A stretch of 63,619 nt of DNA, counting the filler, from Basidioascus undulatus (Eukaryota), in assembly GCA_000826855.1 (NCBI GenBank). It is 5 parts of 5 records of this genome, joined end to end, with 100 filler letters (N's around TTAATTAATTAA, not from the genome) between each part and the next. Parts side by side here need not be neighbours in the genome. Positions count along the whole stretch, not along the records: positions 17,252 to 46,396 come from JTLS01000138.1; 4 more parts are not named here. One strand, given 5' to 3'. Each line of letters opens with the position of its first letter. Positions within the stretch are counted from its first letter, which is position 1. Shown piece after piece: positions 4,095 to 55,111 of the stretch. The notes below the pieces were generated by a model that saw only the letters and a list, made by a program, of their open reading frames with translations, was not told where the DNA came from and searched no databases. A program made the translations under genes and the position numbers.

Positions 4095-7187
<3,093 letters not shown>

Positions 7188-8526: not shown

Positions 8527-8626
8527 NNNNNNNNNNNNNNNNNNNNNNNNNNNNNNNNNNNNNNNNNNNNTTAATTAATTAANNNNNNNNNNNNNNNNNN
8601 NNNNNNNNNNNNNNNNNNNNNNNNNN
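8527..8626. other. Assembly gap with TTAATTAATTAA linker
   Basis: 100-nt N run with a central six-frame stop linker; artificial. Confidence 0.98.
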
Positions 8627-17151: not shown

Positions 17152-17251
17152 NNNNNNNNNNNNNNNNNNNNNNNNNNNNNNNNNNNNNNNNNNNNTTAAT
17201 TAATTAANNNNNNNNNNNNNNNNNNNNNNNNNNNNNNNNNNNNNNNNNNNN
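17152..17251. other. Assembly gap with TTAATTAATTAA linker
   Basis: 100-nt N run with central linker. Confidence 0.98.
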
Positions 17252-19792: not shown

Positions 19793-20536
19793 GATAGAAT
19801 CGATCGAGTGGTCCCGAGAGAGAATCTGAAGTGTTGTAAATTCAGAGCTGGGTGGCGAGCGTGATGGCAGGAAGCAAGAAGCTGGGCGGAGCACAGGGGA
19901 ACGAAGGGGGGAGGTACAAGCGTCGGCCTGAGTTAACGTTTCGCCCTCCGCTCGTCTCTTCATTTTAGAACGGCAACATGGGTTGTGGCCCTTACTATAA
20001 CTGTTCACCCTGGGTGGAGTATCAATATGAAAGCTTCTTCGCGAAAGTATTGTCATATTACGGCGGCTGCATGGGGCAAACAACGGAAGTACTCGCACAG
20101 CTGCTGACCTGCGCTGGGCAACGACAAAAGGTTGCTGAATTTCCTCATACAGTAAAGTATGTGAGTACAGTAGTTTTAGTAGATACCAGAATATTCGACC
20201 AACCGTCATGCCTCCGGAATCAAAGAACGCCTTGGGCGTCGGGCCTGCAGCCAAGGCCCGCTGAAGCTCCCAACGCACCGCCGGTGAAGAGACTGAAAGC
20301 CCTGGCTTAAAGGTCTTGTTGTTCTCGACCTGCGTCTTAGTACACAAGGGCCAGAATGATCCAGGAAGTAAGACGCAGTGCTTCACTGTAGAGCTTAAGT
20401 ACTGACTTGAGCTTGCTCGTCTATGTAGAGCAGAGGGTTGTCCAGCATGCAGATTGTCCTTTGATCATATTTCAGGGGTAGGTTCCACACTTTCTGCAAA
20501 TAACAACACGTCCGGCCGGCTATAGCCTCCCACGAG

Positions 20537-21724
20537 CTAAACCACGCGCCCCGGGTCCATTGCGCTCTCCTGGCCTACATCAACGCGGCCATGAAACGAG
20601 ATCGGAAGGGACTTGCCAGGCCCTACAGAAAACTCGTTCAGAGCCGAAGCGATTCTGATACCTCTCTTCAGCTGGCTGAGCCTCGGGTCATTGTCTTCTG
20701 AAAAGAGCTCGTCGGACGACACGACGCGCAGCTGGAAGCGCTCGACAGCAAAATCGAAGAAGCGCCGGTTCGTCCGCGCCATCTCCTCGGTCTCTTCCGC
20801 GAGCTCGAAGCGAACGGGGAGAGGAGGGACAGAACGCTGTACTGTGCGCTTGGCGATAAAGTAAACCGTTGTCGCGAGAGGTGTTGGAGCGCGCGACAAG
20901 CTGCAGACCGTACTGTCGAGTTTGTGCCTCCAGTCAGCACGAAGATGCGCTGCGCCGACGTCACCGAGGGAATATGACAGTTACCAGAGCAAGGAAGGAG
21001 GAAGCGTAGCCCGCCTTTTCAATAGTCAATATATAAGTTATGTGCAAGTAAACGAGCCGCTCGAGGCACTGTTGGCAGTGCGTGCACTCTTTCGGCCCGC
21101 CCCACGGGCAGAGGGCATGGATGCGAGCCCTTTCCTCGATTGCCTCCTTACGATGCGTCCTCGATTGCCTCCTTCGAGCGTCCTCGATCGCGAAATCCAT
21201 GAGCATGCTGCCGATGAGTTCGAGCACTTCCCGGACTGCAGCGAGACGGAGTAGCGAATGCTCCGATCGAGACTTGAGCGACACCGGCGCCTTGGGTGGG
21301 GCTGATACCGGCGCACTACCAGCGCCTTAGGAGGCGCAGAAGATGAGAAGCCTGTCTGCCTTCCGAGCCACGTCCAGAACGTCGTGCGGGCTGCGGGATG
21401 TTCGAGGTATCAGCGGGCATTCCGGTGATGGTGGGGGTAAGGAAAGCGCTCACTCTCCGCAGCCGGGGGCACAGCCGGGGGCACAGCCGGGGGCACAGCC
21501 GGGGGCACAGCGAGGGGCACAGTGACCGGCGCTTAGGGAGTGTGGTATTTATGAGAATAGCCGTATGCGAACTTGACAGGAATCCCAATGATCAAAGAGC
21601 CCAAACGCTGTCGATTCCCGAGGAGAGCAAGCAAGTCGAGTCCACCGGTGCAGGACGGCCAGGCGTTGGCGGCGATTGAGAGCGACATGGCGTCGACTGG
21701 CAGAGCGAGGACACTGACTGGTAT
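20537..21724 (-). pseudogene. Unnamed family X, copy 2
   Basis: (ATA)PVSVLALPVDAMSLSIAANAWP...LLRLAAVREVLELI...CPWGGPKECTHCQQC...RFELAEETEEMARTNRRFFDFAVERFQLRVV...LPISFHGRVDVG; start codon ATA where copy 3 has ATG, and in-frame TAA at 21533-21535. Confidence 0.8.
21460..21519. repeat. 12-bp minisatellite (CAGCCGGGGGCA) x5 inside family X copy 2
   Basis: Four perfect units plus one degenerate unit; encodes VPPA repeats on the minus strand. Confidence 0.95.
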
Positions 21725-22173
21725 GAGGGGCTGATGGATTATGGGAGGTGCTTCGAGCAATCGAGCTGGTAAGTAGGCAACGCGGCGGTGAATAGGACTG
21801 ATGATGGTATAAGGGCAAGGGGCGAAACAACAAGGGTGTTTGGGGAATGGGTGGACAGAGCGGAAGCAGACGTATGGAATGTGCGAGCTTTTCATACGCT
21901 CTATCGATGAAGGCTGTCCTGTGTCTTATATGAGGATTTGTGCAGATAGGCTGGTGTGTCGCCTCCGAATGTGGCTACTGAACACGATTACCGTTGTTAC
22001 AGACTTGAAGGCTGCCTTGTCGGGCCGGCCTTGCTGCGTTGGCCATCGCTGGACGAGCTGATGCAGCGGAATAGAGGCATCTGAGTAACTCATGATTGTT
22101 TTTTTTTTCTTTTGATAAAAGCTTTATACTAGGTCCCCAAACCACTTTGGTTTATTTTTAAAAAAAACTGGGA

Positions 22174-25228: not shown

Positions 25229-26116
25229 TGTTGTTTCTGGGAGTAGGGAGTGTGTGTGGGTGTGGGTGCTAGCTGGTGGGGTGTGCTGGGAATCAAGAGG
25301 GAAGACGCATCCGGCGGGGGCATATGAGCGTTGATGAGCCAGCAGTGTTCAAGTGTGAATTCTAGCCAGTGGCCAGGCGCCACGATTCCGAACGGGAACG
25401 GTTTACATGACGCAAGTTCAGTAAGCGAGCGCAAAACGCGCGTGGAGGGAGAGAAGACCGCAGGTGGAGGGAGTGTTTCTGCACTGCCTCTTCGCCTTTA
25501 TTTTTTTTCACAACCCTCGCTGTGACAACCTTTTCGAGCATTGGGAATCGGAAGTCTTATGTGTAACCGAAGTACTGTTTATTGATGCAGTACAAGCTCG
25601 AACCACAGTCAGTGACCGCCGGCACGTTGGCGACTTTCGTCCAACTTTCGACGCGATGTCCCCTGTCGATATGTTTCCATCTCACTCTTCCCATCAACTA
25701 GTGACTAGGTCTCGGTCAAGCCGATATAGGTATCTGTAGTCCATGTTCGCATTCGATGTCCCTCGATATTCCCTCCCCCTGTGCGTGGTCTTCAAGCAGC
25801 TCGGCGTGCCCGCCAACTCCACCTCCAACGGGTGAGAGACATGCTTTCGGCAGCTGGTTTCGCGCTGCGAAACTGATCTCAACCAAACAATCGACTTGTG
25901 TACTATGAAAGACCCATGAACTAGAGAGGCAACCTTCCAGAGGGCTAAATAGTATATTGAAAGCAGGTACATTCCAGACTTTTTGCTTCCGCTCTGCACA
26001 AGACCGCAACAACGCCCGTTGCTTCGCTCGGCTTCTTGCGCTCTGACCATCACCACCCCTATTCACAACCGCGCGTTGTATACACGCCCTCGCTCACCCA
26101 TAATGATTAGCCCATC

Positions 26117-27155
26117 ATGCCAGTCACTGCACTCGCGCTGCCCGTCGACGCCATGTCACTCTCGATCGCAGCCAACGCCTGGCCGGCCTCCGCGGGCGGA
26201 CTCGACTTACTTGCTCTGCTCGGAAATCGCCCTCGACCAGAGTCTCTGATAATTGGGACTCCGGTCAAGTTCGCATATGAGTACTCGCATGAATACCACA
26301 CTCCTAAAGCGCCAATCATTGTGCCCACGGTGGCGGAGGGTGAGCGCTTTCCTTCCCACACCTTCACCGATCCGCCCGCTGAGAGGTTTCATTACTTCCT
26401 GGGCTCGGATCTTCGGATTGGCGGGCCTCTCGGGCTCAACTCCTCCCAAGTGGCTCGTCTCGCCGAAGCCTCGACCAATGCATTCGCTACTCCGTCTCGC
26501 TGCGGTCGAGGAAATGCTCGATCTCATCGGCAGCACGCTCATCCAGTCTGCGATCCAGGATGCGGGAAGGAGGAGATGGAGATGGTTATCATCCATAGCC
26601 ACTGCCCGTGGGGCGAGGCGAAAGACTGGATGCATTGCCAGTCCTGCATAGGCCAGCTCTCTCTTGCGTACACGTACCACAAACGAAAAGGCCGGTTACG
26701 TTTCTGCTTTCTGCTTCCAATGTGTCCCGTGGTTTTCATTGCACAGCAACTCCATGTAGACTGGAGGTACAATCTCGACAGTACGGTTTGCAGCTCGTCG
26801 CGCGCTGCAAAACCGATCTCCGCCACACAGACTACTTGATCGCTAAGCGTTCCCTCCCGTCCTCAGTTTCGCTTCTGCCGGACCGCTTCGAGCTCGCCGT
26901 GGAGACCGAGAAGATGGTGCGGACGAACGCGCGTCTCTTCAGCTCGCACTCGAGCGCTTCCAGCTGCGTGTCGTGCACCGAGGTCCTTCCGGAAGACGAC
27001 TACCAGTGTCTTGGCATTACCGAGAAGGGTATGATGCTCGCTTCAACTCTGAAGGACTATTCGTGCTAGCTGCGCAGCTTGGAAAGGCCCTTCCGATCTC
27101 GTTTCATGGGCGCGTTGATGTGGGCCTGGCGAGCGTGCTGGACCGCGTGGTTTAG
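26117..27155 (+). pseudogene. Unnamed family X, copy 3
   Basis: MPVTALALPVDAMSLSIAANAWP...; colinear with copy 2 through LPISFHGRVDVG but needs several frame changes. Confidence 0.8.
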
Positions 27156-27339
27156 CTCGTGGGTACTGTAGAAGGGCTGAAGATTAGCTATTTGTCTTTT
27201 ATCGCACATGTATCTGTAAACTTGGCAAGGGGTCGTGCTGGACAATCCTCTGCTCGGGCCGGGCAACACAGTCTGGGGTTTGCTCTACAACGAATCGACT
27301 GCAACGTACTTTCGAGGCCCAACTGTACTGAACGTTCTG

Positions 27340-28218
27340 ATATCAGACTCGATCTCGTCCCCAGCGACTCTCAACCTCCTGAAATTCTCAAATTGCTCGA
27401 CGTCTTACAATGCCTTCATCGCTCTCGGACCTTCGAAGCCAGATTCGCCTCGCCCAGACCGCCCTCGCCCAGCGCGCGTTGCCGCCTGGCCGCTGTTCAG
27501 GAGCTGCTTGATCTTATCGCCGACAAGCTCATCCACTTTGGCATCGAGTATCCAGGAGGAAGTATGTCAAAGCTATGGCTGCCGGGCATGACGAGTGTAT
27601 GTGGGGCGCGCCGAAGTCCAGGGCGCATTGCGGAGAATGCCTCGTCGCTTGCGAATACAACCCAGGTATCTGCACTCTTTCACGATACATAATTTCAAAC
27701 CCCGTGAGGTGCCCTGCGCGTCCAACATGCTGAAGCCGGTAAGTCTGCGGTTCTCCAATCTGTCCGATGCGCGGCACGGCTCGCTCATCGCTAACACCTT
27801 ACTGCATTCCACTTCGCAGTACGGCTTGCAGCTCGCTGCCCGTGCGAGTACAACCTCCGTCGGACCCATATACTTCATCGCGGGGTACGGCCCCGAGAGC
27901 GTCATCCAGCCCACGCCGACGAGCTTCGAACTCTCAGGCCGACGGATGAGATGGTCCAGACGAGCAAGCGCCCGTTCGAGCTCGCCGTTGAGCGCTTCAA
28001 GCTCCGTGTCGTGCCCCGCGCGAAGCTGTTCCCAGATTCTGGGACGGAGAAGCATTCAGTCCTGCACAGACGCGCCAGCTCGCAACGATCCTCGTCAACT
28101 ACGCTGCGCGCCCGGGGGAGCCGCTGCCGATTGTGTTAGGCGGGACTATCGACATGGGCATGGCGTGACGAGCTCAGCTTGGGGGCGGATGTTGGAGCTG
28201 GAGATTTGCTTGGCTTGA
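27340..28218 (+). pseudogene. Unnamed family X, copy 4 (more divergent)
   Basis: RLAAVQELLDLIADKL, CMWGAPKSRAHCGEC, QYGLQLAARA and PFELAVERFKLRVVP match copies 2 and 3; frameshifted; start approximate. Confidence 0.7.
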
Positions 28219-32468: not shown

Positions 32469-34159
32469 ATGCCCGCTGCCGCCCACACCGCCGCCAAGGT
32501 CCTCCCCGAGGGCCACTTCCTCTTCACCTCCGAGTCGGTCGGGGGTCCGTCTTCTCTTTTTGCTTGATGGACTAGAGGAGATGGGGGGCTGACCCTATGC
32601 GCTTTCCTGATATCAGAGGGCCACCCCGGTGCGTTCACGCTCATTCGTATTCCATCTCCCGAAATTCCAACTCAATTTCATCTCTTCTGGGCCCGCAGAC
32701 AAGATCTGTGACCAGGTCTCGGACGCGATCCTCGATGCCTGTCTCGAGCAAGACCCGCACTCCAAGGTCGCTTGCGAGACCGCGTCCAAGACGGGCATGA
32801 TCATGGTCTTCGGCGAGATCACCACCAAGGCCCAGCTCGACTACCAGAAGATCATCCGTAACACCATCAAGGAGATCGGCTACGACTCGTCCGACAAGGG
32901 CTTCGACTACAAGACCTGCAACGGTGAGCCAATGGTCTCCTTGTTCTGTCGGGTTTCATGCAGCGCGGATTTTATCAGGGAACAGTCGTGGAGATGAAAT
33001 CTGAGCTGACTGGAACGGCGGCTTCTATCACCAGTCCTCGTCGCCATCGAGCAGCAGTCGCCCGACATTGCTCAGGGTCTCGACCACGGCGACCTCGAGA
33101 GCCACGGTGCCGGCGACCAGGGCATCATGTTCGGCTACGCGACGGACGAGACGCCCGAGCTCATGCCGCTCACCGTCGTCCTCGCGCACAAGCTCAACAA
33201 GGCCCTTGCCGACGCCCGCCGCGACGGCTCCCTCGGCTGGCTCCGCCCCGACACCAAGACCCAGGTCACGATCGAGTACAAGAAGGAGGACGGCGCCACC
33301 ATCCCCCTCCGCGTCGACACCGTCGTCATCTCCACCCAGCACGCTGACGAGTGCGTTCCCGTTCCTTCCTCTCCTCCTTCGCCCCTCTCCCTTTCTTTTC
33401 TCCCGGTTACTAACCATTTGTCGTTTTGTAGGATCTCGACCGAGGACCTTCGCAAGGAGATCCTCGAGAAGATCGTCAAGAAGGTCATCCCCGCCAACCT
33501 CCTCGACAACGAGACCGTCTACCACATCCAGCCCTCCGGCCGCTTCGTTATCGGTGGTCCCCAGGGTGACGCCGGTCTGACCGGCCGCAAGATCATCGTC
33601 GACACCTACGGTGGCTGGGGTGCGCACGGTGGTGGTGCCTTCTCGGGCAAGGACTTCTCCAAGGTGCGTTTCCGCGTCCCCCACCCCACCCCTTCTCCCT
33701 CCGACCGCGAACCGCACCTTGAACTGACTTCGCTTTTTTTGCTTCCCACTCTCCAGGTCGACCGCTCGGCCGCCTACACCGCCCGCTGGGTCGCCAAGTC
33801 GCTCGTCAAGGCTGGCCTCGCGCGCCGCGCGCTCGTCCAGCTCTCGTACGCCATCGGTGTCGCCGAGCCGCTCTCCGTCTTCGTCGACACGTATGGTACC
33901 GGCAAGGGCAAGTCGGACCTCGAGCTCGTCGACGTCATCCGCAAGAATTTCGGTGCGTCCTTCCCCCCTCTCGCCCTCGTCCAGCGTGAGCGAATGCTGA
34001 CGCAGTTGGGATTGGCTCTTCGTGACCATAGACCTTCGCCCCGGTGTCATTGTTAAGCACCTCGACCTCCAGAAGCCGATCTACCGCCGCACCGCGTGTT
34101 ACGGCCACTTCTCCTCCCCCGACTACTCCTGGGAGAAGCCCAAGGAGCTGCAGCTTTAA
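32469..34159 (+). CDS. SAM2: S-adenosylmethionine synthetase (methionine adenosyltransferase)
   Basis: [96 protein letters not shown]...WEKPKELQL*; six introns. Confidence 0.98.
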
Positions 34160-34881
34160 GCATCTCCCGCATCCCCTTCTTCGCCCTATTTTGACCTTCT
34201 AGACTTCCCCTCATCCGCACGGCGAGCTCCCCCTCGCTCTTCTCCTCTTTCCTCCTCCGCTTCCCCGTCGCTTTCTTCCTTTCCTGCTTTATTCTTCCTT
34301 GGGCTCCTTGGGCTTCTTGCGCGTCCGCCGTCCCGCTTTCTCCTCGTCGCACACCACAGCAGCAGCAGCCACGCCATCGACCTGTACTAGACTACCCTAC
34401 ACACATATCATCGTCCTCTCCGCCCCGCATAACATGTACTTCTCCCTCGCACCCGCCTCCCCTCATCATTGGACCCCATCACCCTCGAGCATAATCAATG
34501 ACCACAAGCGTTCAACACGCACCCATACTTTCCCTCGTTTGCGTTCTGGTGGTCGCCGGGCGTGCATGTGCACCTGTTCCGCTCCGCTTCACTGACTACC
34601 TCCCCTGCTACCAGATCAGACAACTTCGCCGACCCTGACTTCGTCTCTATCGCTCGCTCATCGTCTGCCCTTAATACCTTCGATCAATCATCTCGCGCAG
34701 CTTTCGATGCTCGTCGCAACGACCGTCTACATAAGAACCCAGCTCCCGGTCATGTCGCGCTGCCATCTTTCCCCTCCCATTCACGGTTCACTGTACTACC
34801 GTCTGCGAGCTGGCTGGCATCTTTTAGCCTTCCACACTCTTTTATTGTCCTTACTCCTGGTTCGGGTGCAGTTTCTGAATC

Positions 34882-35372
34882 ATGACACGCCTCACATTCG
34901 CTTTTTCTTTCGCGGCTGCTCTCACCGTCGCCGTCGTGCCCGGCGCGCTGGCCGCCCTGTCGTCCTCCTCGCTCTCCACTTTCGAGGACTCGCTCAAGCT
35001 CTCGTCCCAGTTCGATCCTATCTAAGCTGCGTACTGGACTGGTGCGTCTTTCGGAAACTCTGGTACCCTTGGTCCTGGGTTTGCTGAAGATCAATCGTTC
35101 CTACTCTGCAGCCTTCCTCACCATCGCCGCAACCCCTTCGCGCTCGAGCCGAGCGGCAAGGCGGCCTACACTCGCCTACCTCTACTAGAGCAGTAGCTCC
35201 GTGGTGGTCCAGCAGGTCGACCCGTCGACCTTCACCGCTGTTGGAGATGCAGTCAACAGCGACGGCTCCGAAGGCACGTTTTGGACCTGCGCTGAGCTTA
35301 AACGCAGCCCTTGCTAACCGCTGTGGGACTTATTCAGCGGGCGGTTTGGTCGCATATGACGACGGCTTCGCG
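34882..35372 (+). pseudogene. Secreted uncharacterised fungal protein, N-terminal half (split by inversion)
   Basis: Signal peptide MTRLTFAFSFAAALTVAVVPGALA, then STFEDSLKLSSQFDPI*AAYWTGLPHHRRNPFA...VVVQQVDPSTFTAVG...AGGLVAYDDGFAV; in-frame TAA at 35023-35025; stops abruptly at a junction with MYND sequence. Confidence 0.75.
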
Positions 35373-36040
35373 GTCGATTCATACTGCTCGGTCGAATGTC
35401 AGCGCGCGGATTGGCCAAAGCAACAAGGTAGGATGCAAGCTCCGCGTGGACGCTCGCGACGACCCCGAGCTCGGGCCGCTCATGCACGTCTCAGACGCAC
35501 TGCGCAGATGGTCAACCAAGCACACAGATAATAGTTTGCGATGTGTTTCGCACTGGAGCTCCGCGAAAACCCCGCCAACTGTCTCGAGTATGCGCTCCTA
35601 CTCAACCTTCGGCCCGTCAGCGGCGCCGCTTCGAGCCGTCCTCGTACAAGGTCATTCCTCGGGAGGCACTGGAGATGGCGTTGGAAGAGGTGGGGCGTCG
35701 GGGTGCCGAGGACAGTCTTCAATTCTCTCGCGAGAAGAGTACACCTTCAAACAGATCGGGATACAGCGCATGCGCTGACCGCTGCCCTCACGCAGGAGCG
35801 GCGGCGCACAACTTCATGGGCACGGCGCTGCTTCTTCTCAAGGCCGGGAAGGTTGTGAAGACCATCATACTGTGGCCTCGGGAGGAAACGTGGAGGTTTC
35901 CCAGCCTGCGTCCGGGGGCGGCGGGGCAGTGGCGGGAAGAGCTGAAGGTCAGCCTGCGGCGCGACCGAGGCACGTCGCAGGGCCGTTTTATACTCTCATC
36001 GATGCAGCTGTGCCGTGCTTCGAAGATTGGATTGTTTTAA
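35373..36040 (+). pseudogene. MYND zinc-finger protein copy A, C-terminal part (split by inversion)
   Basis: SYCSVECQRADWP, FALELRENPANCLEYALLLNLRPVSG, RRFEPSSYKVIPRE and GQWREELKVSLR are homologous to copy C; frameshifted; lacks the first two Cys pairs. Confidence 0.8.
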
Positions 36041-37099
36041 AGTTTAGTTCGGTGGAGTGCGATGTTGCACGATGCGATACACCTCTCGGAAGTGGCTGCG
36101 AAGTCGATACCACCCACACCAGTTTTGCACATACCATGGCCGTCGCGACGAATGCGGGTACAGCCATCTTTAGACAGGCCAGGAATGGTACGAAAATACC
36201 ATATCGCAGCATGAAAACTGAGAGAGCGGCCGCATTCATCTCAAGCGACCCGCACCCACTCCCTTCTCTCCCTCCTTATTTAACCGCACCACCGACAGCT
36301 CCCCCTCGGGTAGCGCAATCGAGAGCTCAAACAGCAGTCCCTTCGGAAGCTGGTTCCATCGGAAACGCTTGAGTCGCTTGTGCGCGTAGCGGGACGCCTC
36401 GTCGATTGTCCCATCCATTCCCGCTGCCAGCCTGGGACTTCCCATCTGCGTTTGTCAAGGCACTCGGTCGGACTCTGGAAGAGGTTCCGGGAACTAAGCA
36501 TTACTCCCAGAAGGGGGGAAGCGGGAAACGGGACGGAGACGCACTCTGAGGAATTGGATCGAAAGATGCAGGCAGGGCCTGACGCTCGCTTTAGCATAGC
36601 CGCAAGAAAATAATTAGCAGAGACTCCGGTCTGTCTCCATGCCGTTAGATCCATAGAGCACTAGGCAGCCATTCCTCCTAACGGCGCGCTCTACTCCAGA
36701 AGATCCACCAGCTGGCGCGCTGTCATCATGGCCCGAGCTGCATTTACTGCTTGCGGAGCTTGAGCCTTCGGCGACTGGCCGGGTGAGAGCGCGCCGGCGG
36801 AAATGAGCACAGGCAGTTGCGCGCCGGTTGGAAGGTCGTGCGATGGCGTGCGATCCGCCAGGGCGCGGCCTGAGAAGCGGGAGGCGCGGGCAGACGAACG
36901 GTCAGGTAAGATGAGGGCAAGTACGAACCAGCGGAGGACAGAGGTGGACCTACTTCGGAATTTGGTGTTCTCGATTTCTGTACTATCGATGGGGGCGCCG
37001 TGTGGCTGGGAGAACGAAGAGCATGCGCAACGGTGAGAACGCCAGCCGCGCGCAAGCTCGTGAAACAGCCTCACCCTGTGAGATCTGAATAGCATGACA

Positions 37100-37417
37100 G
37101 ATCCCAGCCGGCCTCGTACGCGATCCTTTCTCGGGATGAGGCGGAGAAGCTATTCGGCCATGCGCTGGAGTAGAGTCTGCTGGCGGGTACCGCATCAATA
37201 CGTCCAATCCAATGCTTATACAGAAGGAAAAGCTGATGCTGCTGCGTATCCTCAGTGGGGATGGGCTTCACGCATGGCGCTGCTCATCCTCTCGGCCGGC
37301 AAGGTCTTCATGCCGGTGGTCCTTCCGGCTCCTGGGGAGGAGGCTCAAAAGATGTTTCCCGCTGTGCCTCCAGGCGCGCAGTGGTGGGAAGAGCTAAAGA
37401 TCATGCTGCGCGACTGA
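37100..37417 (+). pseudogene. MYND-family paralogue copy B, 3' fragment
   Basis: QPASYAILSRDEAEKL and LLILSAGKVFMPVVLPAPGEEAQKMFPAVPPGAQWWEELKIMLRD* match the C-termini of copies A and C. Confidence 0.75.
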
Positions 37418-38603
37418 TGGGCGGGCACCCGCACCAATTGTACTCTCACTCATGAAAACGTGTTATGAACCGAAAGTTGGCCGATCTCGAAGTTTGATTC
37501 ATTGGAATTGTATTCTGGTTCAGGATAAGCCGACACCCACAACAGTTGTCGGCGTGTCATTCATACTTTTGAAACAGCGCTGCATCATTTTTCAATCCGA
37601 GTTGGGGGTACCGCGGTTGCTTTCTGATGTACACCACCTTCAGCTCGCTGCCTGAAAGAGGGTTTAAATCACCCCTGCAACTGAGCACGAAAAGCACAGG
37701 ACGATCGAATTCATCTCGAGCGATCCGCATCCCCTCTGCATCCCCCACCTCCAGACCCCACTCCCTAAGCGCGCTCATCCTCACCTCGAGCCCTTTCTTT
37801 TCCGTTTTCCGTCTACTCTTCCTCTCTACCTCTCAACAGCCCCGCGAGCAGCTCCTTCCCCTCCGCCTCCCGAACCAACAGCCCAGAAGAACGGCTCTCG
37901 CTTCATCTGCCACTCCGCCTGGCCGCCGGCCCAGCGGAAGTTCCACCGGTCGTCTGTGTCGAATGAGACGTCTGCAGTTTCGGGGAGAGGGATCGTGGAA
38001 TTAGGTAGACTCCTCCTTCTGTTGAGGGAATAGCAATGTACTGGCGGTGTGGCACCGGCCTCCAACATCTAGTAACGCATTCTTCCTTCCTTCGGGAGAA
38101 TCTCTGAATTGAAATAACAAAGCAAACTATCCGAAGGCTGCTCTCGCGATTAACTTTCCAACCATGCGCAGGACATTGCTTGGTGAGGACAAGCAGGCTG
38201 ATGGTCGGAGCTGCAACGTTTGGGTCGGCTGTCAAAACACCTGATGAGTGTGCTTCAGAAGCATACCCTTACCTATGTGGCCCATTTCTACAATTTACAG
38301 ACCACATTCCTGTTCCACTTTAAGCAGCATACGTCGAGATCTGCAGTCGAGCATGGAAAGAGGGCTTCCACCCCTGGTCTCCTGCAAGGGGAAGGTGCTT
38401 CGCGGCAGCAGGACTAGCCAGAAACTCTGTTAACTTGTTTCCTAACCCTAAGCAGGTTAATTACCAACACAACGCGCCGATAGAGTGTCGAAAACGTCAC
38501 ACAACCGGTCTTCTCACAAAAAGGGACGTCGTGTACGCAAGGTGGTGCCCTAATAAATGTGACGGCTAAAGGAAGGTTGCTCAAAGGTGTACACTGGATC
38601 GAA

Positions 38604-40584
38604 TCAGAAGTCTACTGCCACCCGAAGGTGCTGAACATTCTGGCGGCGGCGGCGACGAGGGTGCTGGCCGGCGGGGCAGCTGGAAGGCTTGGACGGCGCG
38701 GACGCCGACACTGTCGCAGAGACAGATGCGCTCGTGCCGGTCTCGATGATGCCGACGATGCCCATTGCAGGCTGGCTCGATCCGGCAGTCGCGGTCGCCG
38801 TAGAGCTACCGGTGCTCGCAACGGCAGTGCTGGAACCCGCAGCCGAGCTCGCTGCCGACCCGCTGGACGTCTCGACGGCGGTGCTAGTAGCGGAAGCGTC
38901 GCCGGCAGAGGTCGGGGTGAAGCCATTTCCCTACGGGGAGGTATACCCAGGTCACTTCAGGAACCAGCAGATCCGGGAAGGGGAATATTACGTACAGCGC
39001 CAGCGCCAGAGCCGTCCAGAGAAATGCAAGCGAAGGACACCGCGCTCGTCAGAGTGCCGCTCACCTTGGGGGAGCTCAGGTCCCAGTCCTGCTTGACGTA
39101 GGGCCAACACAGGCGGCCGTCGGAGGTAGCGACGATGTCGCCCGAGACGGTAACCGAGGTGTTGGTGAAGGGAGAGCCGAAGATCTCGCCGGTCGAGGAG
39201 ACCTGCTGGAAGTTGTTGGAAGGAAGGCGGGGTTGTCAGCAAGAAACAGAAAAGGAAGAGTGCAGAAGAAGACTGATGAGATGTACCTCGTTCCGCCGGA
39301 GAAGGTACCCGTGCAGCTCTCGGGGAGGGGCTGGCAAGACGGGTTTGGACAGCGTCTCGTACGTGACAAGCGTGTTGGACTGGTCGAATGTGGCTACGTG
39401 TACGTTCTGTTCTCCGCGCCTTCATGTTCAGCCGCGGGACATTGTGTGAAAAGAAAAGTAAGTACGCAGCGCGCCTGGTGATCAGACCCGTCGTCTTTGG
39501 TAACTCAAGTGATCTGGCTGTCGCCGTCAGAAGCGCCCACTTCCGAGGTCGCCTGCTCGCCGAGCAGCTCGCTCTTCGTCTTCGTCACGGCGATGGCGAC
39601 GTTGTGGTTGAGCCAGCGCGGGTTGGCGTGGGCGTACCTGAAACTCGGAAGGTCAGAAACAGAGCACTATGCGGGTGCGTGGAAAATGGTCAGGATGAGT
39701 TCAAGTTTCTTACCCGGAGCCTATCCAGCTGTTCTCGGTGAGGTCCACCGCGCCGCGCGACTGCCAGGCGAAGATGTACTGCTCCGACGAGCCGAAGCGG
39801 GCGAGGTTGGAGTAGGAGCCGGACATGCCGCTCACTGGCCGAGAGGAATCCAAAGTTCGACAATCATAAAATGCTGAGATGATTCCACGCAGAAAGGGAA
39901 CAGCCGCAGACGTCCTTGCTTCGCCACCAGAGCCCTTCGTGGTGTTCTCATTAGCGATCTTCACACCGTTGTTGGACATGCCCCCGGTGTCGGTGTTGAG
40001 CGAGATTGCGCTGAAGCCATCCCACTTCATGGTCAACCACATGCGTCCGGTTTGAAGAAGCAGCACCTCCTTACGTACCCCTGGTCCTCAGCGCACACCG
40101 ACGCGAACGGCGTCTCGTCGGCAGCCTCGAAGCCGATGCCCGTGTTGTGCGAGCATCCCCAGGTGCTCGTGCCCTTCTGCGACTCTTGGCGCTCGCCCTC
40201 CGAGTTGACGTAGGTGATGGCCTCGCCGAAATGACCATTCGCCCAGCCGTCGTAGGCTGTAAACGGAGAGAGCTAGCCGAAATGTCAACTTTGAAAGACG
40301 ACGACTTGCGAGTAACGATGCAATAGGCGCCGTAAAGCTGCAGCTTCGGAATAGACAAGGTCACCGTTGATGTCGGGGGTAGCCGTACCCTATTGGTGCG
40401 ATTGAAATGTAAGCGACCATCGCCAGAATGAGCAGTCAAATGAACTTTTACCGCAGTGTCGCTCGCTCCGATGGAGTTAGGGCTGTTGAGCTCGGTCGAC
40501 CACGCCTGCTTACCGTCCTTGTACCGGACGATGACCGCAATGGGGTTGTCGTTAGTGTGAAGGTTCACCGTTCCGGCGGCCTTG
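38604..40584 (-). pseudogene. Secreted uncharacterised fungal protein, C-terminal half (inverted)
   Basis: NPIAVIVRYKDGKQAW, STWGCSHNTGIGFEAADETPFASVCAEDQG, GVKIANENTTKGSGGE, GMSGSYSNLARFG...YIFAWQSRGAVDLTENSW, ATSEVGASDGDSQIT*VT, then a Ser/Thr/Ala-rich tail; no signal peptide or start of its own; TGA at 39505-39507. Confidence 0.75.
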
Positions 40585-40593
40585 TGAATAGAC

Positions 40594-40785
40594 GTGTATT
40601 TCCAAATGTGTCAGGATGGCTGTTGTTGCCGGGAAAAGGAGGGAGGGTGGGAGGCGTACTTTTTGCCTGCAGCGCCCGCATACGGCGAAATTAGGGCCTC
40701 CCACCGGCGGCAGCTTCTCGCAGTTGAAGTAGGGAACGCGTGGGCGGTAGATGCCGCTGCTGATAGAACTCGAGCTGGAATACAT
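40594..40785 (-). pseudogene. MYND zinc-finger protein copy A, N-terminal exon and first intron
   Basis: MYSSSSSISSGIYRPRVPYFNCEKLPPVGGPNFAVCGRCRQK followed by a GTACGC donor; matches the N-terminus of copy C. Confidence 0.8.
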
Positions 40786-41010
40786 GCGCTTGTGTTTATA
40801 TCAAGGTGCTTGGCAGAGGCGGTAAGAGTGATGATGGTGGGAAGAAGAGAGCGGCAACTGCGCAATGGCGACGGCTGCATGCGGCAGAAACGACGGAACG
40901 CTGGGCTCAGTCTCGGAGTATGCGCGTGCTTTGAAAGACGCAGCAAGAAATCTACCCTGAGGAATTTCCAAGCCGCCAGTCCTCGAAGCAAGGCACATCT
41001 TCAAGGATGG

Positions 41011-41823
41011 TCAAGGATGAGAGTATAAACCGTCCTGCAGCTGGCCGCAGTCGCGCAACCTGACCTTCAGCTCTTCCCACCACTGCCCCGCCTCCCTCAG
41101 AACCATACTTTCGAACACCTTCCGAGTCCCCTCACCCGGAGTTGGGAGGACCACAGGCATAAAGATCTCCCCCACCGAGAGGGCGAGCAACACCTAACCT
41201 GCGAAAGCCGTGCGCTGCCGTTGACACGCAGAAGGATTCGCTTTCCCTCCGCATCTCCGTTAAATCGGACTCGTACTCCTCTTCTGGGCTGCTCATTAGA
41301 AGGCCCTTATTCAGGGCCTGAACCAGTCTCTCCTCCGCCTCGTCGCGAGGGACGACCGTGTACGCGGACGGCTCGAAGCGGCGTGGGTCTCCGCTGACTG
41401 GCTGGAGCTCGATGTGGAGCGCGTTCTGGGCGCAGTTGCCTGGGTTAGCGTGGAGATCCAGCCCGAAGTAGAGCGCGAGGAGGAAGGCGGCTGCGCGGTT
41501 GGCTGACCACTTGTGGACTGCCTCGAACACCGGCGCGAACTGGGGTTCAGCTTGAGCCCGGGCGAGCTCTTATGCATCCCGCCTTGTGCCGCGGCCAGTC
41601 TGCGCCCTGGCACTCGACAGAGCAGTATGAGACTCGGGGTAGGATGTGCAGCTCTGAAGGTATAAGTGAACAGGTCTGTCGCGCTCGGCGGAGTGAGGAG
41701 GGAACACGCATTCTGCCTGCATTGCCCGCACACAGTGAACTTCGGGCCTCCTTCAGGCGGCCGCCTCAGACACTTGTGACAGGGGAGGCGAGGGGTGATA
41801 CCAGAGCGTCAGCTGGAAGACAT
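41011..41823 (-). pseudogene. MYND zinc-finger protein copy C (full length, disrupted)
   Basis: MSSS*RSGITPRLPCHKCLRRPPEGGPKFTVCGQCRQ / SYCSVECQGADWPRHKAGC / FGLDLHANPGNCAQNALHIELQPVSGDPRRFEPSAY / GQWWEELKVRLRD; TGA at codon 5 and a mutated first splice donor. Confidence 0.85.
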
Positions 41824-42497
41824 TTGCTGTTGATACTGAGGTTATCAGACGAGGCGGGAGGGTGATTGTGGCAGAAGTCGAGCAGAGCGGCGATGGCGGC
41901 GACAGCAGAAGCGGCGGAATGGCTGGCTGAGGGTCGACCATACGTCTTTTGGGGGCCGCTTAAACCACCGAATTGCCATTGTCAGTGATAGTTCTAGAGT
42001 TTTCAGGTCTTTACAACGTGCACTCCTCCAAGTTCCCTTTTTGACTATTCACCGAGCAGTTTGCTCGCGTTGAACTCAGCTGCGTTATTTACGTATTCAA
42101 TTGAATGCAGCTGCGTATTGTCCAATATCAATTGGATGCGAAAAAATCTGCTCTATGCCTCTAGCGAAACTGGCGGACGTCCTCAAACATGGGTCAAGGA
42201 CAGCGCATCGTCTCGCCGCCCATGATGCTGGTCTCCGCCGCGTGGCTGTGCTCACCGATCAAGCCCGCGACGAAAGGAAGACTTTGGTGAAGCTCTTTGA
42301 TTTAAATCGTGATTAAGTATACCAGATAGTGCATCGCAACAGCAGGAAAATAAGGCAACTTGGGGCAAAGGTAGTATGATTATGTACGAGTCGGGAGTGT
42401 CCAGATCCATAAAGCCAGAGTGGAAAACGATGTAAGAAGAGCGTCCAATGTGAAGAGTCCGATAGCAAAGGTCCGATGGACAGGTGGAGGAGTGAGA

Positions 42498-43344
42498 TCA
42501 CTTGGTCCAAACCTGGTTAGTGTTGCCGGTGGTGCACTGGTACGTCTGAAGCAGGTTGCCGTTGGCAAGCGCACCACCAGTAAGGTCGAGGCACTGGCCT
42601 GTCGAGCGGAGATTGTCAGAACGGCCAGTATCAACGAGAAAGCGGCTAACAAGACGCAAGACCAACCCTGGTTGTAGAGAGCAATGCGGTTGTCGCCTGT
42701 GTACCACCACTGCTGGGCGGGCAGACCGTCATAGCACTGCCAGATCTTGGCGCCAACATTGTTTCCGGGAGCTGAGAGATTATTCACGCCTTTAGCGATT
42801 GCGTGGAAGATGGAAAGGTTTCTATCAGCTCGCGGACTTACTCGAGCCAGCGTCGAGGCAGAAGTTGGTGCCGGCGATACGAACGGACGTCAGGCCTGTA
42901 AAGAGTACAAGCTCTCAGTACCATTCGCAATAGAGGGAAGAGACAATGTGAAATATGAACTGCTGCGTACCAGGGTTGACGACCCAGCGCTGAGCGCCAG
43001 TGCCGTTGCAGTCATAGCTGTTCCGACCCAAGAGGTCAGCATTGTTTGAAGGCACGGATGGATGCAGTGAAACGGAGAAAATACACCCACATCTGAACCG
43101 GAGTACCATTAGCGAACACCCCGCCTTGAACGTCCATGCACTTGTTCGCGTTGCCGTTCGGGTGGAGCGCGACGCCGCTGCCCTGGGGCGGGCTGGTCGA
43201 GGTCGGAGTGGCCGTAGTGCTGGTGCCTGTCGCGGTGACGGTGGTAGTAGTCGTCGGGCTGCTGCAGGGCGGGCAAACAGGCGCCTGGGGAAGGGCGACG
43301 GCGACCGCGGCGAGGAAGAGGGTGAGGACGGCGGTGGGGTACAT
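42498..43344 (-). CDS. Secreted ricin-B lectin (CBM13) with Thr-rich linker
   Basis: Signal peptide, KCMDVQGGVFANGTPVQIYDCNGTGAQRW, NFCLDAG, KIWQCYDGLPAQQW, QCLDLTGG...LQTYQCTTGNTNQVW (QxW repeats); four GT-AG introns keep the frame. Confidence 0.93.
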
Positions 43345-43449
43345 GGTGAGGTGAGTGGAGTGGAGATATGAAAGCGGTGGTGGTGGTCGAGCTGAGTGGT
43401 TGAGAAGAGAAGTACTGATGGAGGTAGGACTCCCGGGAAGAGGAGGGCG

Positions 43450-43949: not shown

Positions 43950-46396
43950 TTGCAATGTTCAGGCCGATCTATTGCGACCATGTGAGCTCGAGGCATGCAC
44001 AAAGCAGACAAGAAGCAGGGTTGACCTACGACCGAGAAGCGGATCGCCTCGTTGAACGTCCGCGACAGCGCAGAAACGGCGCGGTAGAAGGATGTCAAGT
44101 TGATCTGCAGCAGCCAGTCAGCTGGCGCAGCTTCGAGATGAATAGGCGAGGCGTAAAGAAATTTACTGTGGTGATGAAGACGAAAAGAAAGTATATGAAG
44201 AACTGGCCAGCCTTGCGTTGCAAATTCGCAAGGAACTGCAGATGTCGCGTAAGCAAAGTGCTCGGAGGTTGGGGATGCGCTGGACAGCAACGACGTACGT
44301 AGACGATAATCGATTCAAGCACGACGATGAAGAAGAGCAATGGCAGATCGGCGACCACGCGAGCGAACGAAACAGCTGACGGCCGGTCTGCATGGAATTC
44401 GCTCGATATCAGCAGCTTTCCATGTGAGGTTAAGGATCTGCGGCTTACAGAATGCAAACTCGCGATGACGTTGGATGATAGTGCGCCCCGAAAGCGCATC
44501 CTGTAACGGGTTGTAGCGACCTATGGACAAAAAGGAGGAAAGCACAAGGCACGGACCATGATTTCCGACAACTGAAGCCAACCGGTGAAGAGGATGGAGA
44601 AGAAAAGGATTCCGCCGCGCGTGAAAGCGCCCGAGGACGACTGAGGTTCGCCGTAGAACACTGCATAAATCCCAGTTGTCGAGTCAGCAAGGGGAAAGAA
44701 GTGGAGCTATTCCTCACAGAAGGGCGCTACGCACGGGAAGAGACGACAAAGGACACGACAAGCACAGTCGCGAACTTCGTGTAGATCGACTGCCGATCAC
44801 TCCAGTGTAGTTCTGTTCCCGACCATCCGAGAGAGCCAAGTTAGAGTGGAACAGCCGCAACAGGGCACCACGACTTACGGAACTGCCTTTGGTGCAGTAG
44901 TAGATCTGCTCGGGGTAGCTGACGGTGTAAGGGCTAGCCTTGGGGATCCGCTTCTTCTTCTCGTCGCGCACGGCCATCTTGAACATGCCAATCTCCTGGG
45001 CCTTCTCGATCGACATGTTGTGGTCGACGGCGTGCATGAGCTGCGCGTACTCAGGCGAGTCCCGGAACGCCTTCTCGCGCTCCTCCGGCGTCCGCGGCGC
45101 CCGGTTCTCCCCACCGGGCCGGATCTTGCGGTCACCGGGGTCGGTGATGCTCGTGAGGAAGCTGTGGGTAGAATAGCAGATGAGCGCTGGCGGTAGAGAA
45201 GGGTACGAGGAAGAGTAGCAGCGCACTCGGGTGTGGTCTATTCGGATAGGGTGGCGTGGGGCGCAGAGTGATCAGGAGGGCGCAAACTGCGCACCTGGCG
45301 CGGAGCAGCGAGGAAGCCAAGCCGCTCGAAATAAGCGCGAGCTTCGTCCGCAGGTCCATTATAGACTGCAGCAAAAGGGAGCCGGGTCAACACCGCGCCG
45401 AGCGCCAGAGTTGCAAAGCGCGATTTCCAAACGCACTCATCCGGCCCTCGTCGATCAGCAGCACCCGGTCTAACAGTTTGTAAATGCCCTCGCCGGCCTG
45501 GTACAGCGTCGCGATCGTGCTGCTCTGCGTAACGTCCGTGAGGATGCGCATCGAGCGCACGTAATCGACGGCGGTGCTGGCATCCTGACGGACGAGCGCT
45601 TTCACAGTCAGTACGCTGGATGCGGCATGGGTAGGGGAACGACGTACGAGACCACGGGTAGAGTTGTCGAACGCAATCACCGATGCGCGCGTGACGAGCG
45701 TCTCCGCAATACTGAGGAGACTGTTTGTTAGCGGGACACAATGCAGGCGCAGAAGGAAACCGCAGAGGTGTCTCATACCTGACTCGCTTGCGCTCGCCAC
45801 CAGAGACGCCACGCACGTATTCGTTGCCGACGATCGTGTTCTCTGTATGGGATATGCCGAACATCTTGAGGAGAACCGACAGAAGTCTGCGACAGCGAGC
45901 GTGTCAGATCGCACAGACATACAAGCAAAAAGACAAGGGGAGGCTGGGTTCCTTCCTATCCACAATCCCACCCAGAAGGGAATCACGCACAGCACCCGGA
46001 TCCCGGTCGACCGAGAACGAGTAGCATCTCGCCAGGGCGAATATGGCCGCTAAAGTCGTTAATGAGGTATGAGGTTGCGCGTGGGAGGGGAGCGGCCGAT
46101 GCGCAGGAAGGGTAAGTGCGAGACCAGCCAGCGGTACTGGTCCAAACCGAAGGTCGACACGACTGCATCCGGGAAAGTGCGCACGAACTGGAAGGAAAGA
46201 GGTGTTTGATAAAGTTTTGACATTGGTCTCAAGGAAGAGGACTGGAAGAAGACGTACCGTCGTGCCTGTTCCAGCGCCTTTCACAGTCTGGATCAACCAT
46301 TTCTGTGAGTATGGCGTAACAATACAACCCGTTGCACTACGCACGAGATTCTTCCATTCAACGCCTAGCCTGCCTTTCTGAGTCTTGCCCGCCGAC
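43950..46396 (-). pseudogene. PDR-type (ABCG) ABC transporter remnant, N-terminal half only
   Basis: [102 protein letters not shown]. Part of NBD1 appears deleted and there is no room for NBD2-TMD2 before the lectin gene. Confidence 0.85.
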
Positions 46397-46496
46397 NNNN
46401 NNNNNNNNNNNNNNNNNNNNNNNNNNNNNNNNNNNNNNNNTTAATTAATTAANNNNNNNNNNNNNNNNNNNNNNNNNNNNNNNNNNNNNNNNNNNN
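46397..46496. other. Assembly gap with TTAATTAATTAA linker
   Basis: 100-nt N run with central linker. Confidence 0.98.
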
Positions 46497-55011: not shown

Positions 55012-55111
55012 NNNNNNNNNNNNNNNNNNNNNNNNNNNNNNNNNNNNNNNNNNNNTTAATTAATTAANNNNNNNNNNNNNNNNNNNNNNNNNNNNNNNNN
55101 NNNNNNNNNNN
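55012..55111. other. Assembly gap with TTAATTAATTAA linker
   Basis: 100-nt N run with central linker. Confidence 0.98.

Follow-up and report, generated by a model that had tools for sequence, protein, structure and literature searches.

A stretch of 63,619 nucleotides of DNA from Basidioascus undulatus (the window; assembly GCA_000826855.1) carries a paracentric inversion of about 5.2 kb, from 35376 to 40580-40599. The inversion is real and its ends cut two genes: a gene for a secreted protein, here named S, and one copy (A) of a family of MYND finger genes. At the left junction a plus-strand frame reading GGLVAYDDGFAV continues stop-free into the second half of the MYND finger, and at the right junction, on the minus strand, MYND exon 1 (ATG 40785, donor 40659) and its intron pass into the remainder of S. 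Both reciprocal junctions, with the inner segment in opposite orientation, sit on a single contig, C423, which occupies 17252-46396 of the window and belongs to an assembly (G000) of 32 Mb in 2992 contigs. An inversion of this size that reciprocally splits two genes had been proposed by a sequence-only reading, with a switch at 35373 from a signal-peptide gene into the second MYND half and another at 40593 (minus strand) from the first MYND half and intron into a headless secreted protein. Both switches are present as described, and the inversion is borne out by homologues, by a MYND profile and by contigs.

The closest homologue of S is EV420DRAFT_1505116 of Desarmillaria tabescens (P0002; Armillaria group), an uncharacterised fungal secreted protein, whose residues 28-115 align with 34978-35375 on the plus strand and residues 121-483 with 40580-39008 on the minus strand. 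Taking the two halves together, 313 of 473 aligned codons are identical, and P0002 matches only C423 in the assembly, S being single-copy. Among 163 homologues searched, 66 match the left piece, 134 the right and 46 both (E<=0.01); the order of the halves is collinear in all 46, and in 59/59 homologues holding the motif before the cut the chain continues beyond it. Since homologues match both halves in collinear order, the left and right pieces are one gene, as the sequence-only reading had supposed; both halves fall in one protein family rather than in unrelated ones. For the second gene, a MYND DNA profile was built from five paralogues on other contigs, leaving out copies A, B and C of this region. 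Its positions 48-358 lie at 40888-40583 (minus strand) and its positions 360-1037 at 35377-36054 (plus strand), and flipping the segment in silico fuses copy A into a single profile hit of 479 bits, compared with 457 bits for the unsplit copy C. After the flip copies C, A and B come to lie on the same strand, as had been predicted, with the correction that B is a 3' remnant without a finger. Copy C has both MYND halves in order, again as predicted, but it is itself broken, with four frameshifting indels and a donor that reads AT. Gain or loss of sequence was small: P0002 residues 115/121 and profile positions 358/360 flank the cuts, and at most about 20 bases are unassigned.

Three sequencing runs (X1, X2 and X3) were used as contigs and not as reads, and the assembly may have been made from X1 and X2; X3 carries the label 'DNA?', yet its contigs skip GT..AG introns. 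One contig of 21,529 bases in each of X1 and X2 spans 33000-43010 with 0 differences and 0 gaps, and a 662-base contig of X3 (record 16) lacks the 64-base second intron of S and from there follows 35336-35936 across the left junction, again with 0 differences. The left junction is therefore bridged in 3/3 runs and both junctions in 2/3, X3 covering the left one only; it has no cover in bins 39973-41073 and says nothing either way there. The uninverted order appears in no contig examined of the three runs, although the sequence-only reading had allowed for data that would support that order alone. That the genome is uninverted and the contig misjoined is hardly credible. The assembly is fragmented and two DNA runs may be its source, but both junctions lie within single contigs of these runs (depth 18 and 46.5), the spliced X3 contig crosses the left one, and none of the 15 joints listed (of 17) links the two breakpoints. 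Moreover, exact inverted words within 300 bases of the junctions reach 8 nucleotides at most, too short to mislead an assembler, and there is no long repeat. The elements of the rearranged region are as follows.

34882-35375, plus strand: 5' part of S, three exons, with a signal-peptide-like start (read from the sequence)
35046-35111 and 35274-35337 (GC-AG): introns of the 5' part of S
35023 and 35186: stops in the 5' part of S, with a frameshift near 35170
35375/35376: left breakpoint, where the last S codon (Val) meets copy A, at the 3' splice site of the first copy A intron or directly beside it (P0002 alignment, MYND profile and flip enumeration; contigs of X1 and X2, spliced contig of X3)
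35373-35381, plus strand: 9-nucleotide word, inverted match to 40585-40593 (minus strand) in 8/9 places
35376-36054, plus strand: 3' part of copy A, with the second finger half, C-terminal region and downstream flank; six frameshifting indels
36055-37103: spacer, with no match to the MYND family
37104-37499, plus strand: copy B, a 3' remnant (profile positions 616-1032) on the same strand as the 3' part of copy A
38604-40580, minus strand: 3' part of S, propeller exons and a Ser/Thr-rich tail
38931-38995, minus strand: last intron of S, skipped in an X3 contig
40338 and 39346: sites near which the 3' part of S is frameshifted, with a stop at 39507 and a non-GT/GC donor at 39279
40580-40599: right breakpoint zone, 19-20 bases that could be either S codons or the last part of the MYND intron; contigs of X1 and X2 span it
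40600-40888, minus strand: 5' part of copy A, with the upstream flank, exon 1 (40785-40660) and the intron from 40659
40986-41918, minus strand: copy C, the unsplit paralogue with both finger halves in order

Reverse-complementing 35373-40593, as the sequence-only reading had proposed, rejoins both genes in terms of profile and homologues and is right to within a few codons, but not to the base: taken literally, this flip puts S out of frame and gives the MYND intron no AG acceptor. We enumerated 608 clean flips, 182 of which keep S in frame, and 11 of these also give an AG near the MYND exon. The flip that is best for S, 35376-40598, needs an intron of 62 bases compared with 66-85 in 6/6 paralogues and 64-93 in 9/9 X3 introns. 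The six extra residues it supplies score at chance level (161 of 1000 random inserts did as well), and it demands a Tyr after the S motif, where 57/59 homologues have L, M or F and none has Tyr. With the right break placed at 40580/40581 instead, the intron would have 79 bases, but 5-6 codons of S are then lost, and a third reading, near the places first proposed, requires later one-base indels. The right breakpoint is not decided by intron length, branch distance, the random-insert control (1000 inserts) or the residues of the homologues.

Inverted repeats or element copies, as a repeat-mediated inversion would have them, were not found at both breakpoints. The inverted repeats present in the region are MYND paralogues that the flip has placed in opposite orientation, and what the cut brings together is S and a MYND intron rather than two paralogues. 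As for a signature of staggered breaks, the ends share only the 9-nucleotide word, with no longer inverted duplication. Its 8/9 match is reached by 0.4 to 4.8% of random window pairs, depending on window size and with windows chosen post hoc. The identity of the word, in register at the ends, could point to a directed inversion, in which a tyrosine recombinase (Crypton-like) or a microhomology template switch used it. We consider this very unlikely: the word is partly the outcome of the join itself, PF00589 had 0 candidates in the assembly (a search of low power for intron-split fungal genes), no recombinase or transposase passed the Pfam cut-off among the 96 open reading frames of C423, no element end of the Crypton-like kind was seen at either breakpoint, and the spacers inside the inverted segment are single-copy save for one 140-base piece. 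This piece (36282-36420) has one 74% copy on another contig (C1113, L019) and is without a MYND profile match. Programmed flip-flop inversions, such as those of mating-type switching, have long inverted repeats at their ends and show both orientations in culture; here the ends have no repeat and one unbroken contig runs across both junctions in X1 and in X2. For inversions of the Drosophila melanogaster group, the accessible sections of one study propose repeat-free breakage and non-homologous end joining, not ectopic exchange between repeats (PMC1885836). The breakpoints described here are repeat-free like those staggered-break inversions but, unlike what these sections describe, show no gene-sized inverted duplications, the ends sharing at most a 9-nucleotide imperfect word.

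The sequence-only reading did not mention that each of the cut genes is a pseudogene damaged at many other sites, which alters how much weight the finding has. S has three stops and three frameshifts in the 473 aligned codons, three of these disabling lesions falling in the 110 codons of one half and three in the 363 codons of the other. Runs covering the lesion sites of S show the same letters as the assembly. The neighboring S-adenosylmethionine (SAM) synthetase stretch is open across 290 codons, so the lesions in S and in the MYND copies are not a general assembly fault. From the three stops of S, some 0.07 substitutions per site (95% range 0.014-0.20) are estimated to have accumulated after constraint was lost, and the decay is therefore not a laboratory event. 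It could be argued that the same inversion killed a working S and that stops and frameshifts came later. S keeps a GC content at third codon positions of 0.82, an active promoter and spliced introns, the presence of lesions in both halves fits decay after the cut, and according to the portion consulted of PMC4937564, 109 of the 804 gene losses counted in Lachancea lie at balanced breakpoints. Even so, this order of events is unlikely. Lesions in both halves fit either order, nothing dates the inversion first, and it is one of at least seven disabling lesions of S, so that, were their order exchangeable, its probability of having come before all the others would be about 1 in 7.

Copy A belongs to a dispersed family. 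The assembly has 97 zf-MYND (PF01753) matches in all, and 7/7 MYND copies examined carry 2-8 frameshifting indels relative to their consensus, five of them unsplit and on other contigs. These five copies (L002, L003, L005, L009 and L010) lie on contigs C1483, C2416, C582, C2893 and C2547. The copies are 57-65% mutually identical and 17-25% away from the consensus, which is open in three exons; no intact source copy of the dispersed family was found, and the family looks like a burst of copies, by their sequence all dead. In copy A the first Cys of the finger, in exon 1, reads Tyr, and its second half, in the frame of the left junction, matches PF01753 positions 21-34 with 21.3 bits, just below the cut-off of 22.7. 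The finger being intron-split, the second halves alone score 31.3 bits in copy C and 22.4 in copy A (23.2 with neighbouring sequence). Copy B has neither a MYND finger nor a YCS-type motif in 37104-37499, and the C-terminal region of copy C had no homologue among 428 candidates in a weak search. Downstream of copies A and B (36231-36261 and 37706-37736) the flanking sequences remain similar over some 370 bases (240 of 410 columns), and the duplicated MYND unit was therefore longer than the gene. Frameshifts are denser in copy A than in S (6 in 650 nucleotides vs 3 in 1419; p = 0.03), although the two were counted by different methods and the difference is a hint only. Because all seven copies are frameshifted, five of them while unsplit and elsewhere, and because of this difference in density, copy A was most likely dead before the flip.

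We find it likely that two breaks were joined crosswise in sequence which no longer mattered, and that the new order was kept by drift. Two double-strand breaks 5.2 kb apart would have been rejoined in the wrong order by end joining, with microhomology of at most a few bases. Before the flip copy A would already have been decaying as a member of a dispersed family of dead copies, and S would have been dispensable and most likely already inactivated. The event would for these reasons have been neutral, and the inverted order would have persisted by drift. Several points weigh against this account. It leaves both the 8/9 inverted word and the position of a break at a splice site as coincidence, and the order of lesions rests on the exchangeability argument and not on measurement. 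The lesions of A and S were counted by different methods, and A contributed to the consensus with which it was compared. The ancestral, uninverted state is deduced from homologues and not read in a relative. The assembly may derive from X1 and X2, the evidence of the three runs comes from contigs, and 2 joints and 37 pieces of the runs stand outside the set listed.

A profile search for the secreted family to which S belongs gave 303 relatives (the best 150 of 303 are listed). A 59-residue exon of the right piece of S found 14 proteins among 20 candidates, and those with names are all fungal and uncharacterised. No Pfam match was obtained in 5/5 members tested, and a further protein, P0006, falls only in 'hypothetical protein' clusters of the Atlas. 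S resembles P0002 in that its halves align in order and are without Pfam domains, and differs from the P0002 family in being cut in two, with stops and frameshifts. The AlphaFold2 model of another relative, P0012, is all-beta (predicted local distance difference test score 73.6, predicted TM-score 0.80). Searched with Foldseek, this model matched many propellers at 8-13% identity and a TM-score of up to 0.47 of the query, which indicates no function. Judging by this model, the family probably consists of secreted beta-propeller-like fungal proteins. The cut corresponds to residue 126 of P0012, inside strand 123-131 of the modelled propeller, and for this reason neither half of S would be a domain. 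A literature search, in which the S family was not searched by name, found no description of the locus.

Transcription from the S promoter continues at a low level and yields a spliced RNA that extends over the left junction into the half finger, and the GC-AG intron 35274-35337 of the dead gene, predicted from homology, is still spliced in an X3 contig. Although the left join keeps the frame, translation meets a stop at codon 48, so no fusion protein is made from this RNA. At the right join, the GT donor at 40659 together with an AG at 40582-40581 would set MYND exon 1 in frame with the remainder of S, and this product is frameshifted near 40338. An in-frame left join crossed by a spliced contig, and a right join that could be kept in frame, might suggest that the inversion was favoured through one or two chimeric genes (a secreted N-terminus with half a finger; MYND exon 1 with a headless propeller) which later decayed. 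This is extremely unlikely, since both products are interrupted, the cut falls inside a propeller strand and between zinc ligands so that neither piece is a domain, and in-frame joins occur 1 in 3 times by chance. It is likewise highly improbable that two in-frame chimeric genes arose in one step, with RNA or the 9-nucleotide word directing one break to a 3' splice site, and that the fusion of the leader with half of MYND, which is still transcribed and spliced, was useful for a time and then decayed. Annotators should be warned that gene callers would build a false secreted-MYND fusion here, and with RNA support.

Small balanced inversions with ends inside genes are a known and ordinary kind of rearrangement, and the present case is an unusually complete one. 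The consulted portion of the Lachancea study reports small inversions as the commonest size class and visible relics for three of the breakpoint gene losses mentioned above (PMC4937564). The inversion end inside a coding sequence, the loss of a gene at a breakpoint and the remaining relics are in accordance with those cases. Unlike the three relics described in that portion, both halves of both cut genes are readable here, the organism is a basidiomycete, RNA crosses one junction, and the cut genes were probably dead already. In Drosophila yakuba fusion transcripts occur at rearrangement breakpoints (PMC6776367, available in part). There, as here, the 5' end of an existing gene lends its promoter and reading frame across the breakpoint, but in contrast to what is described in that part, the RNA in B. 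undulatus meets its stop early and gives no new protein. The inversion has little significance by itself and is rather a clean teaching case, in which, both halves of both cut genes having survived, a single genome was enough to polarise the inversion and to map it to within about 20 bases. It further documents that a conserved but unstudied secreted beta-propeller was lost naturally in one basidiomycete.

The inverted region is flanked by the intact SAM synthetase gene, an exon of which is at most 89% identical to named basidiomycete proteins (8000 candidates scored), and by a spliced gene at 42430-43404 (minus strand) with a weak match to the ricin-B lectin domain (E 0.008, under the cut-off). 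The latter gene has by far the highest X3 contig depth, up to 3190, contig depth being unable to rank genes, and at least one paralogue on other contigs. Introns of the region are short and GT..AG, as seen from X3 contigs, and together with the SAM synthetase exon they mark the source as a basidiomycete fungus. On the minus strand, 44000-46396 holds parts of an ABC transporter gene that extend to the contig end; the PF01061 match (E 0.004) lies under the cut-off. C423 has a second diverged copy family, 20333-22081 and 25755-27334, in opposite orientation and about 63-73% identical; a third fragment lies near 27923-28018. The family shows many stops and a C-x-x-C-like motif, and the open reading frames scanned there gave 0 Pfam matches. 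The window joins five contigs by four N spacers (8527-8626, 17152-17251, 46397-46496 and 55012-55111), each holding a 12-base linker, and genes on either side of a spacer are not neighbors. The other contigs carry ordinary genes: Sin3 C-terminus, aminopeptidase P, ribosomal protein S4 and cyclin, as well as an Hsp70 gene at 4171-6754 (minus strand), whose opposite strand matches PF10712 (NAD-GH), presumably as the known antisense shadow of that model.

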